The notes: generated by a model from the sequence alone, not told the origin. A DNA stretch of 56,449 nt from Planctomycetota bacterium (GCA_039190745.1 JBCCXZ010000020.1:1-56449), one strand, 5' to 3'. Numbered from the stretch's first letter, positions 20,931 to 54,415 are shown. Numbers and translations are program-made.

Positions 20931-21040
20931 AGCAACAGATGAACACAGATAAACGCAGATGAGGTGTCTGCTGAAGCACCAATCGCGGCTTCCAAGCTTT
21001 CGTACTCCTTATCTGTGTTCATCTGCGTCCATCTGTGGCT
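20931..21040. repeat. Inverted-repeat element with arms of 3 x 10-nt CAGAT units (no ORF inside)
   Basis: agcaacagat gaacacagat aaacgcagat, 50-bp spacer, atctgtgttc atctgcgtcc atctgtggct. Confidence 0.85.
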
Positions 21041-21134
21041 CTTTCTGTTGGCGAGTTTCTTCCGTGCTTGCCATGCGGTTAGGAAGCGCTAGATTGCTGG
21101 GTAACCCCCCTGCCCTTCCTGCCGAGCTTCCTCG

Positions 21135-22835
21135 ATGGCCAACCGCAACACGCTGGGCGGTGTAATCCACACCTACCAGAAGTACGACCCGAAACGGTTC
21201 CCGAGCCCGACGCAGCCGCCGCCGGACCTGGTGTCGCCGGCGTTCGAGCACATGCTGATGTACGGCCAGCGGCGCGAGCTGACCGAGGAGGAACTGGCCC
21301 GGGCGATCCGGCTGGACCCCAGCCAGATCGCCGGCTTCGGGCCGAGCCTCGAGGCGCTGCTCGCGATCCTGCGTGAGCGGAAGCGGAAGATACTGGAGCG
21401 GTACGAGACGCGCAAGGTTCGGTCTCGGGCTTCGAAGGCTTTCGCCGAGCGGGCCGAACGGATCAAGCCGCCCAAGGAGTTTCGGGAGCAGTTCCGCAAT
21501 GCTGTGCGTACCGAGCAGCTCCGCGACATCGAGCGGCTGTGGTACGCGGTGGGCAACGACCAGTCGCACTTCGCGGGGCAGCTCGTCGGGCTGGTCGAGA
21601 CGCTGGGCAACAAGTACGAGGTGGAAGAGCTCGCGTCGAAGTACGACTTCACCGGCCGCGAGGCGATGACGGTCCCGCAGGCGATCGAGATCAAAGAGGA
21701 ACTGGAGAAGATCGACGAGCTCATCCGCCAACTCGAAGAGGCGATGGAGACGGCCGAGATCGCGATCATCGACATGGATGCCCTCGCCGAGTTCACCGAG
21801 CCGGGCGACATCGAGCAGCTCAGCGCGATGCAGCAGCAGATCCAAGACCTGCTGCGCGAGATGGCCGAGCAGCAGGGCCTGCAGGAGAGCGGCGGCAGCT
21901 TCAGCCTCACGCCGAAGGCGTACCGGATTTTTCAGGGGAAGCTGCTGGAGCGACTGTTCAGCGAACTGGCTCCGTCACGTTCAGGCCGGCACCAGGGGCC
22001 GATCCTCGGTGAGGGCGCCGTCGAGACGCAGTCGACCAAGGACTACGAGTTCGGCGACTCGGTCGCGAACATGGACATCCCCGGCTCGTTCGTGAACGCA
22101 CTGCTGCGCAACGGGCCGGGCACGCCGGTGCGGCTGTCGCAGGAAGACATCGTGGTGCACCGCACGCGGAACACGCCGAAGTGCGCCACGTGCGTGGTGA
22201 TGGACATGAGCGGGTCGATGCGCTACGACGGGCAGTACATGAACGTGAAGCGGATGGCGCTCGCGCTCGAAGGGCTCATCCGCAGCGAGTACCCGGGCGA
22301 CTTCTTGCAGTTCATCGAGTCGTTCACGTTCGCCAAGCCGGTCGAACGGGGGCGGATCATCGAGCTGATGCCCAAGCCGGTGACGGTGTTCGACCCGGTG
22401 GTGCGGATGCGGGCGGACATGAGCCGCGACGACGTGAGCGAGCACATGATCCCGCCGCACTTCACAAACATCCAGCACGGCCTGGCGACGGCCCGGCGGA
22501 TGCTCGCCGCGCAGGACACGCCCAACCGCCAGGTGGTGCTGATCACCGACGGGCTGCCGACGGCCCACTTTGAGCAAGAAATCCTCTACATGCTCTACCC
22601 GCCAGATCCGCGGACGGAGGAGGCCACGCTCCGCGAAGGGGGGCTGTGCAGCCGGGAGGGCATCACGATCAACATCTTTTTGCTGCCGAGTTGGTCACAA
22701 ACCGAGGAGGATGTGCGCTTTGCCTATAAGCTGGCGGAGTCGACCACCGGACGGGTGTTCTTCACCGCGGGCAACGACCTCGACCGCTACGTGGTGTGGG
22801 ACTACGTGAGCCGCCGCCGCGAGATTGTTGGCTGA
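21135..22835 (+). CDS. VWA-domain protein of the type usually partnered with a chelatase/MoxR-like AAA+ ATPase
   Basis: Helical N-terminal region; VMDMSGSMRY, TNIQHGL and LITDGLPTAH. Confidence 0.85.
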   Translation: MANRNTLGGVIHTYQKYDPKRFPSPTQPPPDLVSPAFEHMLMYGQRRELTEEELARAIRLDPSQIAGFGPSLEALLAILRERKRKILERYETRKVRSRASKAFAERAERIKPPKEFREQFRNAVRTEQLRDIERLWYAVGNDQSHFAGQLVGLVETLGNKYEVEELASKYDFTGREAMTVPQAIEIKEELEKIDELIRQLEEAMETAEIAIIDMDALAEFTEPGDIEQLSAMQQQIQDLLREMAEQQGLQESGGSFSLTPKAYRIFQGKLLERLFSELAPSRSGRHQGPILGEGAVETQSTKDYEFGDSVANMDIPGSFVNALLRNGPGTPVRLSQEDIVVHRTRNTPKCATCVVMDMSGSMRYDGQYMNVKRMALALEGLIRSEYPGDFLQFIESFTFAKPVERGRIIELMPKPVTVFDPVVRMRADMSRDDVSEHMIPPHFTNIQHGLATARRMLAAQDTPNRQVVLITDGLPTAHFEQEILYMLYPPDPRTEEATLREGGLCSREGITINIFLLPSWSQTEEDVRFAYKLAESTTGRVFFTAGNDLDRYVVWDYVSRRREIVG

Positions 22836-23020
22836 GGGCTGCGTGCTAGCATTGCGGGGTTCTAGGCAACTTGGGTTGCGTATGGGGATTGCAGCCATCG
22901 GGGGCGATTTGCGTTGCCCCCACGCCGATAAACCAGTAAAGTCGCCGCCCCTTCCCAAACCGGGCACGGCGGCAACCCTCGCTCGTCGCGGAAGGCTCAC
23001 ACTGACGCACCGATCTCATT

Positions 23021-23080
23021 TGCTTCGACACACACTAGTTCGCTTCGGCACACACTAGCACGCTACGGTCCACACACAGG
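23021..23080 (+). repeat. Three degenerate 20-bp tandem direct repeats
   Basis: tgcttcgacacacactagtt / cgcttcggcacacactagca / cgctacggtccacacacagg. Confidence 0.75.
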
Positions 23081-23093
23081 CAGGGCTCGAATC

Positions 23094-52000: not shown

Positions 52001-52738
52001 GATCAGGATGTTGTCCACCTCGTCGACGATCGCAAAGTTTAGGCGGCCCTGGGCCTGTTGCTGCTGCTTGGGGTAGCGGTCGTCGTCTCGGGCGGCGGTC
52101 CGCATGTTGTCGCGGAGGTAGTCGAACCCAAACTCGTTGTTCGTGCCGTAGGTGATGTCGCAGGCGTAGGACTTCTGCCGGGCGTCGGGGTCCATGCCGC
52201 TCTGGATGTTACCGACTGTAAGCCCGAGGCCTTGGTAGAGCGGCGCCATCCACTCCATGTCGCGGCGGGCCAGGTAGTCGTTCACCGTCACCACGTGCAC
52301 GCCCTTGCCGGGGATGCCGTTGAGGTAAGCCGGCAGCGTAGCCACCAGCGTCTTGCCTTCGCCGGTGACCATCTCGGCGATGTTGCCGCCGTGGAGGATC
52401 ATGCCGCCGATCAGCTGCACGTCATAGTGCCGCATGCCGAGGAAGCGCTTGCCGCCCTCGCGGCAGACGGCGAACGCCTCGACCAGGAGGTCGTCGAGCG
52501 TTTCGCCCGCGTCGAGCCGCTTGCGGAACTCGGCGGTTTGCGCCTTGAGCTCCTCGTCGGTCATTGCCTCGTAGCGGGCCTCGAGCGCATTGATCGCGGC
52601 GACCTTGGGGGTGAGCTTCTTCAGGTAGCGGGCGTTGGCCGAACCGAACAGCGAGGTGATGCCCCGCTCGAACCGCCCCAGCAGGCTGTTGCCCGCGCCG
52701 GAGACGACCTCCCAGGTTCGTTCTAGTGCGCCTTCCAT
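49040..52738 (-). CDS. secA: Preprotein translocase subunit SecA (long form)
   Basis: [40 protein letters not shown] and C-terminal [13 protein letters not shown]. Confidence 0.98.
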
Positions 52739-53137
52739 CGTGTTCTCAGTGACTCGTTAGCTTGCTGGGTTGGGAACGCTCTAAGCGCCACGGTGACTCG
52801 ACAGCTCCGTCCACGGATTCGATCGAGCAGCCAATGCCTTCTGGGGGCCGAGCGCTGCGGCGGTTGATCGCTGGAGCAGGGTGGGGAACTTGCGCACCGG
52901 CACGGGCGACGGCTCTCCAGCCCCGGTTTGGGCGACGGGCCGCGCGTCGGCGTTGTTCGTAACGCCATAGGAGCTAAAAGTTTAGTGCCCCTTCGGGACT
53001 GGGTCAAGACGACCACGCCGACCCCCAGCCATCGCAAAGCATGGCAAAGAAAAGAGTTAGCACCGCCTGCCCGCCTCATCGTGGTGAGCAATGCTCGTCA
53101 GATCATCACTCTCCCTAATCATCTCCAAGCTCTCGTA

Positions 53138-54289
53138 CTACCACGCTTCGGTATCAAGCTCCACATGCCCTTCTCGCACCATCTGCTGCGCCGCCGCGGC
53201 GACTTTCTTGGTCAGCGGCACCAGCTTCGTCGGCAGTTTCTGCACGTCGAGGCCGCGGAGCACCTCCAGAGCCTTGTTCGGCCGCTGCAGTTCAATCAGG
53301 CAGATCTGCGCTAACTTTACCCGCACGCCCTCGGTCCCCTCGGGGAAGCGTTTCAGGCAGTCCGCCATGAGCGGGCACGACTCGCGCCAACGCTCCTGCC
53401 GGTGGAGCCCGGCGATCATCTTCAGCAGCGTTGCCCTCGGCAGTTGGACCGGACCGCCGAGGTGCCGGAGCCGTTTGTACAGTTCGAAGGCCGGCTCGTC
53501 GCTGCCCTGTTCGAGCAGCCAGGCAATCTTCTCCGGTCCGGTGTCGAAGGCCTGTTGTTGTTTATCTTTTTGCTGCTCGACCCGCCGCTCCTCGGCCGCC
53601 GCTTTTTCTTTCTTGGCGCCTTCGTCGCCGCGGATCACGTGGAAGATGTCCCACCCCTCACAGTCGACCAGCCCGAGTTTGTACATCGCTACACCCAGGG
53701 GAGCCCCCACCAGCACGCCGCCCACGTGGAGCCAAGCACTGCTGTTGACGCCCTCAATGGCGGAGTAGAAGAGGTCCATCCCAATAAAGAACGCCGCAAA
53801 CCACACGGTGCGGATCTCGCCGGTGCCCATCATGAAGAAGAAGAACCAGTACCACACACGGATATCGGCCATTGGCATCCACACCGCGGCAATGGCCATG
53901 ATGCCGTAGATGGCAGACGACGCCCCCAGAGAAAACCCTTCGCCACCCAGCGCGATCTGGATTCCCTGCTCTAGAACCGACTGCAACACGCCGACGGTAA
54001 GGTAGCACAGCAGGAACTTCCACCAGCCGACTTTCCCTTCGACGAGCAGACCGAACACCCCCAAGAAGATCATGTTGCCGATCAGATGGAACACGTCGGC
54101 GTGCATAAACATCGAGGTGAACCACTGGAGCGGGGTCCACCCCTGGCCGTACGGCAGCAGCCACTGCTCGGGGTCGGGCATCGAACCCGAAGCCATTGAG
54201 AAGAACGCCATGGTATTGACGACGATTAAACCCGCCGTGGCGACCGGCAGGTAGTAGATCGGGGCGTCGGTCCCGTAGGGCACAATCAT
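53138..54289 (-). CDS. Rhomboid intramembrane serine protease with a C-terminal helical/TPR-like domain
   Basis: FMHADVFHLIGNM, GASSA and AWLHVGG. Confidence 0.9.
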   Translation of the reverse strand: MIVPYGTDAPIYYLPVATAGLIVVNTMAFFSMASGSMPDPEQWLLPYGQGWTPLQWFTSMFMHADVFHLIGNMIFLGVFGLLVEGKVGWWKFLLCYLTVGVLQSVLEQGIQIALGGEGFSLGASSAIYGIMAIAAVWMPMADIRVWYWFFFFMMGTGEIRTVWFAAFFIGMDLFYSAIEGVNSSAWLHVGGVLVGAPLGVAMYKLGLVDCEGWDIFHVIRGDEGAKKEKAAAEERRVEQQKDKQQQAFDTGPEKIAWLLEQGSDEPAFELYKRLRHLGGPVQLPRATLLKMIAGLHRQERWRESCPLMADCLKRFPEGTEGVRVKLAQICLIELQRPNKALEVLRGLDVQKLPTKLVPLTKKVAAAAQQMVREGHVELDTEAW

Positions 54290-54360
54290 GACGCACTGAG
54301 TATCGCTTGCCGGAATCGGCGGTGCAATCGGTGCCGAGAAGCTGAAGAGAGAGATAGTGT

Positions 54361-54415
54361 GGAACTCTAATCGACGCTAATGAACACTAATCAGATTGGT
54401 GCTGATTAGTGTTCC
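54361..54415. repeat. Hairpin element with CTAAT/GATTAG 10-mer arms
   Basis: ggaact ctaatcgacg ctaatgaaca ctaatc a gattggtgct gattagtgtt cc; same family as 39344-39409. Confidence 0.85.

Follow-up and report, generated by a model that had tools for sequence, protein, structure and literature searches.

The window, i.e. the whole stretch of DNA that was analysed, comprises 56,449 nucleotides from a Planctomycetota bacterium (GCA_039190745.1 JBCCXZ010000020.1:1-56449). Between its genes lie seven palindromic elements at six sites, and a lone repeat array is situated inside waaA. These had been proposed by a sequence-only reading, and all were located. Each element consists of two inverted arms made of short tandem words, separated by a spacer of 1 to 209 bp. 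The two-arm design stood; the arm length, first given as about 22-38 bp with 2-4 units, was refined to 25-38 bp with mostly three units. The features are:

20929..21042, no strand: class A element (10-nt unit), arms 20929-20960 and 21011-21042
29462..29667, no strand: class D element (G-rich unit, about 9 nt), arms 29462-29495 and 29634-29667
38279..38424, no strand: heptamer-class element, arms 38279-38306 and 38397-38424
39278..39469, no strand: class C outer element (8/9-nt unit), arms about 39280-39315 and 39432-39467
39347..39407, no strand: class B hairpin inside the class C element (10-nt unit, 1-bp spacer)
47802..47834, no strand: single heptamer array, in frame within waaA
48757..49029, no strand: class A element, arms 48757-48788 (sub-variant word) and 48998-49029
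48797..48964, minus strand: enclosed 55-codon ORF (candidate passenger gene) with a hydrophobic N-terminal stretch
54361..54423, no strand: class B hairpin with a 10-nt unit and a 1-bp spacer, flanked by a bestrophin-family gene and a rhomboid gene

The first class A element has a gene-less interior of 50 bp and is bordered by an alpha/beta-hydrolase gene and a VWA gene. It is retained in the sister species G001 and folds on either strand with a z of about -7. The class D element, flanked by an HD-domain gene and an adenylosuccinate-lyase-family gene, encloses 138 bp; interior and arms are both retained in G001. Comparison of orthologous spacers for empty and filled states had been suggested, and indeed two of the six sites were empty in G001. 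These are the heptamer element (90-bp interior, two ABC permease genes on either side), at whose junction relatives carry different words or short gaps, and the class C nest between an ABC ATPase gene and the first permease gene. A class B hairpin within a class C element is a recurring compound, present 11 times in the genome. The waaA array encodes part of a hypervariable loop, and G001 has an array there too. The second class A element, between secA and waaA, kept its class in G001 with altered arm variants; the junction is variable among relatives. Its 209-bp interior is the largest and, as had been claimed, holds a gene, the 55-codon ORF. Pfam and NCBIfam gave no family match for it. The orthologue in G001 (73% identical) is likewise inside same-class arms, and mobility of this candidate passenger was not supported. 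At waaA loci of other genera no significant homologue was found; look-alike short ORFs were noticed by eye. The class B hairpin at 54361..54423 is found in G001 with a centre 10 bp longer.

The GC content of the elements was below that of their surroundings, as noted before (42-53% compared with 65% in the window), and the three elements that were folded had z values of -3.7 to -7.6. Contigs of a public run cross 39280-39467, 48759-49027 and 54361-54415 with 0-3 differences; because this run is possibly the source sample, the agreement is not independent. An element-skipping joint was absent among the 15 listed of 286 (reads from three DNA runs; contigs drop rare variants).

The CAGAT (A), CTAAT/GATTAG (B), CACGAAG (C), GGGGATG (D) and heptamer classes had been considered a dispersed system. 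A scan of the genome with class profiles yielded 346 arm matches at 189 sites. Inverted array pairs numbered 64 in the real sequence and 0, 0, 0, 1 and 0 in five local shuffles. This demonstrated that the seven elements of the window are part of a genome-wide system. We counted 102 arm pairs, inverted doublets able to form hairpins in intergenic space. At 77 of 90 sites the outermost arms were of one class (10.7 expected). The elements are dispersed and symmetric and do not occur in arrays, and nothing in this analysis connected them to integron attC sites. Among 1035 pairs of class B arms none was identical, and whole elements differed at at least 6 of 60 positions; classes A, B, D, G and H contained no identical arms. 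In the 57 interiors the similarity, among the matches listed, consisted of a nested REP-like family and of GxxExxY genes; a tblastn search for GxxExxY remnants had matches in only the three gene-bearing interiors.

At each of the six window sites the neighbouring genes are co-oriented, as the sequence-only reading had it. The rule did not extend to the genome, where convergent gaps (20/131) and divergent gaps (10/333) are occupied in addition to co-oriented ones (111/1075; gaps of 60-800 bp, rough gene calls). Divergent gaps are strongly depleted (10/333 against 131/1206 in other gaps; p 1.7e-6). As some antisense ORFs in the window were called wrongly, these junction statistics are approximate. 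The elements begin at a median of 11.5 bp past stop codons, where stems of ordinary intrinsic terminators would be expected. Yet only 2 of 77 stems were followed by a T run on the transcribed strand, the sole terminator-like match in a window element was on the non-transcribed strand, and many elements sit within operons in which the orthologous gaps are 13-22 bp. We consider terminators scarcely credible, in line with the initial assumption.

The window itself contains no GxxExxY gene, as noted before. The suggestion that similar repeats flank GxxExxY and four-helix-bundle genes in other bacteria proved correct. In this genome six out of six genes for GxxExxY proteins (PD-(D/E)XK fold) adjoin arms. 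Among relatives, inverted repeats bracket 74 of 92 GxxExxY genes, the best period being 8, 9, 10 and 11 in 26, 28, 18 and 2 cases, respectively, and 23 of 30 four-helix genes, with a period of 7 in 21 of the 23. Of 150 host genes used as controls none was bracketed. In this assembly the cognate genes of classes A and B are broken, nonetheless the arms persist; similarly, no four-helix gene was found here, though 7-nt arms persist. In a tree of 92 GxxExxY proteins the arm classes were clustered (24 changes compared with 51.6 after shuffling, 0/200 as low); no class formed a single clade and 35 of the 92 were unlabelled. Tree clustering alone does not demonstrate co-evolution of arm and protein. 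In a GTDB search with one class A protein, 64 of the 78 scorable best relatives had class A arms and none had arms of another profile class. Arms with a period of 10 span 11 named phyla. On these sequences the arm word follows the protein clade, for one class across 11 phyla.

The predicted structure of GxxExxY (pLDDT 94.7) has a PD-(D/E)XK fold. Foldseek retrieved Cas4 proteins as top matches (Cas4 SSO0001, E 5e-4); in a structural comparison the best Z was 8.2 at an rmsd of 3.4 over 100 aligned residues. E28 and D68 are invariant, E78, K80, Q92 and Y96 nearly so. With a restriction-like fold and conserved acidic and lysine residues GxxExxY is a predicted nuclease. The profile had no sequence match among solved structures. 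The family carries the identifiers TIGR04256 and PF13366 (PDDEXK_3); the part of PMC3424549 that covers it tabulates it with unknown function and multiple horizontal transfers. In the present material no nuclease fold is on record for the four-helix protein.

The enclosed genes also bear on the notion of REP/REPIN or attC-type sites whose movement depends on an enzyme encoded elsewhere, an HUH transposase or an integron integrase. Like REPINs with their RAYTs, as far as PMC3116915 describes them, they are intergenic inverted doublets that fall into several classes, and a single-copy gene belongs to each class. The 'REP-like in logic' part of the sequence-only reading holds to this extent, and so does 'different in sequence', but the hallmarks of REPs are missing: the arms are tandem words rather than small tagged palindromes, and a distinct family of GTAG-type palindromes (72 sites) nests inside the elements. 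Furthermore, the genes enclosed by arms are GxxExxY or four-helix genes, and the expected HUH transposase gene (PF01797) was not found in this 95%-complete assembly. In G001, PF01797 had two matches above cut-off. We regard such sites as very improbable.

Do the arms operate in DNA or in RNA? The elements could be mRNA counterparts of the intervening sequences of 23S rRNA, with long stems whose cutting or binding by RNase III or the cognate protein would tune the expression of operons, or they could move via an RNA intermediate. This would agree with the occupation of transcribed gaps and avoidance of divergent ones, with the strong RNA folding, and with GxxExxY genes running in the direction of the upstream host gene in 75 of 91 cases (crude score). 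Moreover, the four-helix family is named after 23S intervening sequences and resembles Avd, a DGR protein, according to the portion of PMC10053308 that deals with it. However, four data sets lacked an excess of G-U over A-C mismatches on the transcribed strand (90:118, 76:90, 30:30 and 67:64). The transcribed strand had the more stable fold in just 22 of 62 elements (p 0.006 in the opposite direction). Covariation of partner arms was absent: in seven of eight classes partners were no closer than random same-class arms, and in class B they were even less complementary than random pairs (23.1 versus 24.2 of 30, p 0.0002). Rfam had no family matching the window at gathering scores. An RNA-level function thus seems unlikely to us, although it deserves some weight. 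The best reading is that the arms act at the DNA level, as predicted protein-recognition sites.

Next to this stands the evidence for exchange. Genes were gained or lost inside retained arms between species, as the idea of single-gene cargo had implied. The gltB-gltD gap (genes named from sequence) is occupied by a GxxExxY cassette in four genomes, a four-helix cassette in one and a gene-less nest in another. Between this genome and G001 the arms were retained with differing interiors at three sites, and at two further sites the difference included a gene gained or lost. In this cargo comparison one site was unmatched and another had the right flank alone in common. Because 13 of 21 orthologous sites were unchanged, turnover is slow. 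Five sites were first scored absent in this genome; two of them hold weak arms and one a partial arm. At empty sites no target-site duplication was visible, in species which differ by 10-15%. Consensus arm columns diverged by 6% between the species (44/734), a value biased low since only arm-keeping sites were scored; the corresponding figures were 28% for fourfold sites and 20% for arm-free gaps.

Possibly the single arm is the unit. Arrays would then be added singly beside stop or start codons, and a pair would merely wrap existing gap content including small genes. Of 332 arms 125 are solo, i.e. without partner within 700 bp, and of the 79 solo arms that could be scored, 61 point their outer end toward the nearer gene, a polarity also reported for Xanthomonas and Nostoc heptamers in the relevant part of PMC4692102. 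The WaaA loop has in-frame arrays or repeat-like inserts in several genera, as read by eye. Against this speak the class-matched outer arms and the fact that both arms stay while interiors change; in addition, some solo arms are partly deleted pairs. We think it quite improbable that arms arrive singly. Still less probable, in our judgement, are old relics or host-domesticated sites with a host purpose, in which slippage and ordinary gene conversion would account for the reshuffling and the small genes would be passengers. The absence of recent copies, the stability of the majority of sites, the occurrence of changes of exactly one 10-bp unit and the broken or missing cognate genes of some classes are in keeping with relics. 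A mere passenger, however, is not expected to hold one arm word across 11 phyla, nor is a clean split of periods by protein family, 7 nt versus 8-11 nt, expected.

Gene-arm pairing, the match of word and clade, gain, loss, class switch and interior swap, placement adjacent to stop and start codons and the slow change of consensus arms are established. Because contents were swapped or elements lost between sister species, the elements likely belong to selfish DNA. The elements of the window share their arms with GxxExxY genes (8-10-nt units) and four-helix-bundle genes (7-nt units) elsewhere. We lean to the view that a small selfish cassette exists of which they are non-autonomous copies; the arms would serve as binding arrays of the cognate protein, and interiors would be exchanged by recombination at the arms. 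The cognate protein would be supplied in trans by one of the few gene-bearing cassettes and would recognise the word array on DNA. In the GxxExxY classes the Cas4/RecB-like nuclease core may nick or cut the DNA, either at the arms or between them. Repair would then use another element with the same arms as the template for a new interior, and in this way the nuclease gene could be disseminated, as could nested hairpins, REP-like palindromes or passenger genes. Transcribed gaps, directly past the stop codon, are where whole new elements would be expected to insert and would be tolerated. At about 30 bp, an arm is a short substrate for homology of the RecA type. The lack of recent copies, the slow turnover, broken cognate genes with persisting arms and the large share of solo arms count against a selfish cassette; the depletion in divergent gaps is compatible with an RNA step as well as with promoter avoidance. 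More tentatively, we propose minimal mobile elements that cross phyla, in which a free-standing 125-residue Cas4/RecB-like nuclease or, in parallel, an Avd-like four-helix protein might read class-specific words and drive exchange of arm-bounded interiors.

The elements work like REPIN/RAYT systems yet are not members. Both have short-repeat inverted doublets in intergenic space, several classes per genome and, for each class, a single-copy enzyme gene with that repeat on its flanks, with gene-less copies far commoner, as described in sections of PMC3116915 and PMC3733652. As those accounts present them, REPs are palindromes of 20-40 bp with a GTAG- or CGTC-type tetranucleotide tag and their partner is an HUH (Y1) transposase, whereas here the arms have three tandem 7-10-nt words, the partner is a PD-(D/E)XK-fold GxxExxY or four-helix protein, the gene-bearing cassette occurs at many host junctions and interiors are swapped.

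MITEs have terminal inverted repeats, a short non-coding core, a target-site duplication and near-identical copies, and use in trans the transposase of an autonomous element. The present elements resemble them in that the ends are inverted, the outer boundary is sharp and forms with and without a gene exist (in part after passages of PMC3733652). On the other hand, neither near-identical copies nor, at this species distance, a target-site duplication was seen, interiors at different sites have nothing but nested repeats in common, and the arms enclose no DDE transposase.

Intervening sequences of 23S rRNA have an ORF-bearing long stem and the same four-helix family (PF05635, Xcc0516, Avd-like), according to portions of PMC3936711 and PMC10053308. 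In contrast, our elements lie between or inside protein-coding genes rather than in rRNA, are mostly gene-less, have no RNA-strand bias and share their design with a second, unrelated protein family. A close precedent at the level of repeats is given by the heptamers of Xanthomonas and Nostoc, tandem arrays at most 50 bp past stops on the coding strand and before starts on the other, rare between divergent genes and of unexplained function; the sections of PMC4692102 concerned deal with a single G-rich word, interpreted as forming quadruplexes, for which a general association with mobile elements was not found. The present system has a variety of words, classes with 8-10-nt units, arms in pairs and genes cognate to them. 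The GxxExxY family includes genes between 8-10-nt arms; flanking arms and gene-less copies are not mentioned in the pertinent part of PMC3424549. In the literature searched no description of this arm and cassette system was found.

GxxExxY and four-helix-bundle genes are common and their function is not known, and intergenic heptamer repeats were described without explanation, as far as PMC4692102 covers them. If the proposal is true, two large orphan protein families and these repeats would be explained together, and single genes would have a transposase-free and integrase-free route into housekeeping operons. Should the arms serve as exchange sites, roughly a tenth of the co-oriented 60-800 bp gaps of this genome would be open to incoming genes. 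A nuclease that is sequence-specific, very small and of exchangeable specificity would also be useful as a tool. Because the match of word and protein provides a predicted substrate for each clade together with built-in non-cognate controls, binding and cutting are directly testable.

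All elements reported by the sequence-only reading were found where it had placed them. Each consists, as claimed, of two inverted arms, with about three short units per arm, around an interior of 1-209 bp, and has a low GC content (every element 42-53% vs 65% in the window). The window, contig C20 in an assembly of 3.89 Mb (95% complete), carries DUF1559 and PEP-CTERM genes, which point to a planctomycete. A sequence-blind detector counted 64 pairs of inverted tandem arrays genome-wide vs 0, 0, 0, 1 and 0 in five shuffles. Fifteen arm profiles were made from the detected arrays. 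The per-class profile scan of the genome, set beforehand as a check, demonstrated that the arms recur genome-wide (346 arm hits at 189 sites); the shuffled-strand control gave 0-3 hits per profile. The classes are located as follows:

Window 20929 and 48757: class A
Window 39347 and 54361: class B
Window 39278: class C
Window 29462: class D
Genome only, outside the window: classes F, G and H
Heptamer words: a further group of arm classes

The anatomy is based on 332 arms scoring at least 24. From these, 102 left-right pairs could be formed; 125 were solo arms without a partner within 700 bp, and 9 were inside called genes. Nesting of class B within class C recurred (11 occurrences). The outermost arms were of the same class at 77 of 90 sites vs 10.7 expected; that arms are added singly is considered improbable.

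The suggested link of similar repeats to GxxExxY genes (PF13366) and four-helix genes was borne out. Inverted repeats surrounded 74 of 92 GxxExxY genes (all with periods of 8-11) and 23 of 30 four-helix genes (21 of them with period 7), vs none of 150 random host genes. Each gene type was present in 33 of the 41 genomes searched. The genome of the window (G000) has six GxxExxY genes, and arms adjoin all six; a four-helix gene was not found in it. TIGR04256 was matched by five proteins of GxxExxY sites in G000 and its sister species G001 and by one orthologue scanned. Arms of classes F, G, A and D flank their GxxExxY genes on both sides, one gene at a contig end has a class C arm upstream, and the sixth has a heptamer arm upstream and a class B hairpin downstream. 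The class A gene has an out-of-frame start, and an internal stop interrupts the class B gene:

C3:36869-37300 (L003) and C17:35097-35621 (L004): GxxExxY loci of classes A and B, G000

Compared with G001, exactly one 10-nt arm unit is missing at the 5' end of the class A gene, and this loss put the start out of frame. The number of arm units could act as an on/off switch for the gene. Some GxxExxY genes (L006, L028, L031, L071, L023) lie between direct repeats because a complete empty element precedes them and a second right arm follows at the end; in L023 the gene end and the arm are duplicated. This layout fits single-arm integration or deletion.

Do arms and proteins match? On the tree of 92 GxxExxY proteins, the full-length ones from 96 loci parsed, arm class changed 24 times vs 51.6 after shuffling and no class was a single clade, with 35 of the 92 unlabelled and class C lumping several words. 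A cleaner test was a search of one class A protein against GTDB. Among its best 80 loci 78 were scorable; 64 had class A arms and none had another class. The period was 10 in 58 of the 63 inverted repeats at these 80 loci, and the period-10 repeats there came from 11 named phyla, one archaeal. The window elements are very probably relatives of gene-bearing cassettes.

The confident structure model of GxxExxY (pLDDT 94.7) has a predicted restriction-like PD-(D/E)XK fold, with a modest best VIA Z of 8.2; the top Foldseek matches were Cas4 proteins. A sequence search returned no related solved structure. Two residues, E28 and D68, never vary, and four more (E78, K80, Q92 and Y96) reach at least 90% conservation; we take these residues to be a RecB/Cas4-type active site.

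According to a rough gene caller, which mis-called some window ORFs, arms occupied 111 of the 1075 gaps between co-oriented genes of the genome, 20 of the 131 convergent gaps and 10 of the 333 divergent ones. By the same gene calls, the outer arm end was at a median of 11.5 bp from the stop codon (20 bp or less in 113 of 158) and 32 bp from the start codon. Such a position might suggest ordinary terminators; yet a T run followed only 2 of 77 stems, and this explanation is extremely improbable.

Alternatively, the stems may act in RNA, by processing or as an RNA intermediate, which is unlikely. Stems working in mRNA should favour G-U mismatches on the transcribed strand. However, the ratio of G-U to A-C mismatches was 90:118 for 77 pairs in gene gaps, 76:90 and 30:30 for cassettes whose orientation is known and 67:64 across phyla, and the transcribed strand was more stably folded in just 22 of 62 elements. 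In 7 of 8 classes, partner arms resembled each other no more than shuffled arms of the same class did; only the lumped class C departed from this. Class B partners, which almost touch, resembled each other less than chance predicts (p 0.0002), as would be expected if perfect palindromes were avoided; assembly bias is also possible. Consensus arm columns differed by 6% between species, a value biased towards sites retaining the arm, vs 24% at variable arm columns, 28% at fourfold sites and 20% in arm-free gaps. Each arm is thus constrained to its class word and not to its partner, as protein-binding arrays would be. That the elements are relics or host sites is quite improbable.

The comparison with G001 covered 0.84 Mb of its 4.9 Mb and 21 of 198 sites: 13 were the same, 5 changed and 3 absent. 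G001 retains window sites 20929, 29462, 48757 and 54361 and the waaA array; 38279 and 39278 are absent. Sites changed by gaining or losing a single 10-bp unit, by appearing or disappearing as a whole, by switching class or by replacement of the interior; target duplication was not seen at the empty sites. The proposed variability of spacer content and gain or loss of single-gene cargo were both observed: besides empty sites in G001, interiors were exchanged within both kept arms at three sites, and at two more the same outer arms enclosed a small gene in G000 and a gene-less interior in G001. Between gltB and gltD (genes named from sequence), four genomes carry a GxxExxY cassette, another carries a four-helix cassette, and G001 has a nest without a gene. 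The permease-permease gap of the window measures 13-22 bp in 7 of 22 other genomes with both genes adjacent; in 5 of the 22 it contains clear arms built from other words. The secA-waaA gap (window 48727-49040; loci L037-L065), at most 114 bp in 14 of 26 other genomes, is a hot spot. By eye, in the remaining genomes it contains arms of several classes, other palindromes, small ORFs or toxin-antitoxin-like gene pairs. Genus-dependent repeat-like inserts, also by eye, occur in a WaaA loop near residues 300-316 (window 47802-47834; loci L037-L062), which seems to be a site where in-frame insertions are tolerated. Identical class B arm pairs numbered 0 of 1035; there are no recent copies among the elements, though 7 of 28 class F arm pairs are identical. 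One hybrid arm (G000 C28, ~44670-44760) starts as class A and turns into class C, and G001 has a class A GxxExxY cassette at this junction; this suggests recombination within an arm.

For the observed word-protein pairing, turnover, interior exchange, position and constraint we favour, with some reserve, a mechanism in which the cognate protein would recognise its arms in trans, a nuclease would start recombination by which interiors are copied from one element to another with arms of the same class, and elements would settle in tolerated transcribed gaps.

In the excerpts available, REPINs/RAYTs (PMC3116915, PMC3733652) follow the same logic as these elements. Of the proposed REP-like logic with a different sequence, the REPIN/RAYT-like logic stood; unit structure and enzyme place the elements outside REPIN/RAYT, and MITE membership was ruled out by copy identity. 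REP or attC sites are very improbable. Excerpts of Rehm et al. (PMC4692102) present heptamer arrays with the polarity seen here and give no function. Further excerpts list PF13366 as of unknown function with many transfers (PMC3424549), treat the four-helix family with arms unmentioned (PMC3936711, PMC10053308) and mention GxxExxY just in passing (10.1101/2021.01.26.428298). A listing-level literature search (subscription papers and supplements outside its scope) found no description of the arm-gene system. It is real, genome-wide and apparently undescribed; in its workings it resembles REPIN and MITE families, but it is a member of neither.

A separate tagged-palindrome family nests within elements. 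A GTAG-type palindrome doublet of ~73 nt had 72 sites in G000, e.g. inside element C54:17441-17608; 18 of the 72 were at most 150 nt from an arm and none was in the window. The search for Y1 transposase genes gave none in G000 and two above the cut-off in G001. Other passenger ORFs between arms in G000 were:

C9:47846-48335
C72:15098-15587
C2:126751-127103
C56:12333-13047
C44:8197-8894

One encodes a dual-specificity-phosphatase-like protein (PF22785) and three belong to no family; the fifth, of 224 codons, lies between unlike arms and matches unnamed Atlas clusters.

In the window, a 20-nt tandem repeat (23022-23068) lies upstream of a DUF3352 gene, where G001 is 39 bp shorter. Upstream of secA (window 52738-53138; G001 C3:1363900-1364780) G001 has ~500 additional bases, presumably containing an acetyltransferase-like gene. 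SecA itself (49040-52738) is 1232 aa long, and its P-loop and wing matches are split, suggesting long insertions. Near a PEP-CTERM gene there is a vanadium-haloperoxidase-like gene (44613-46019).
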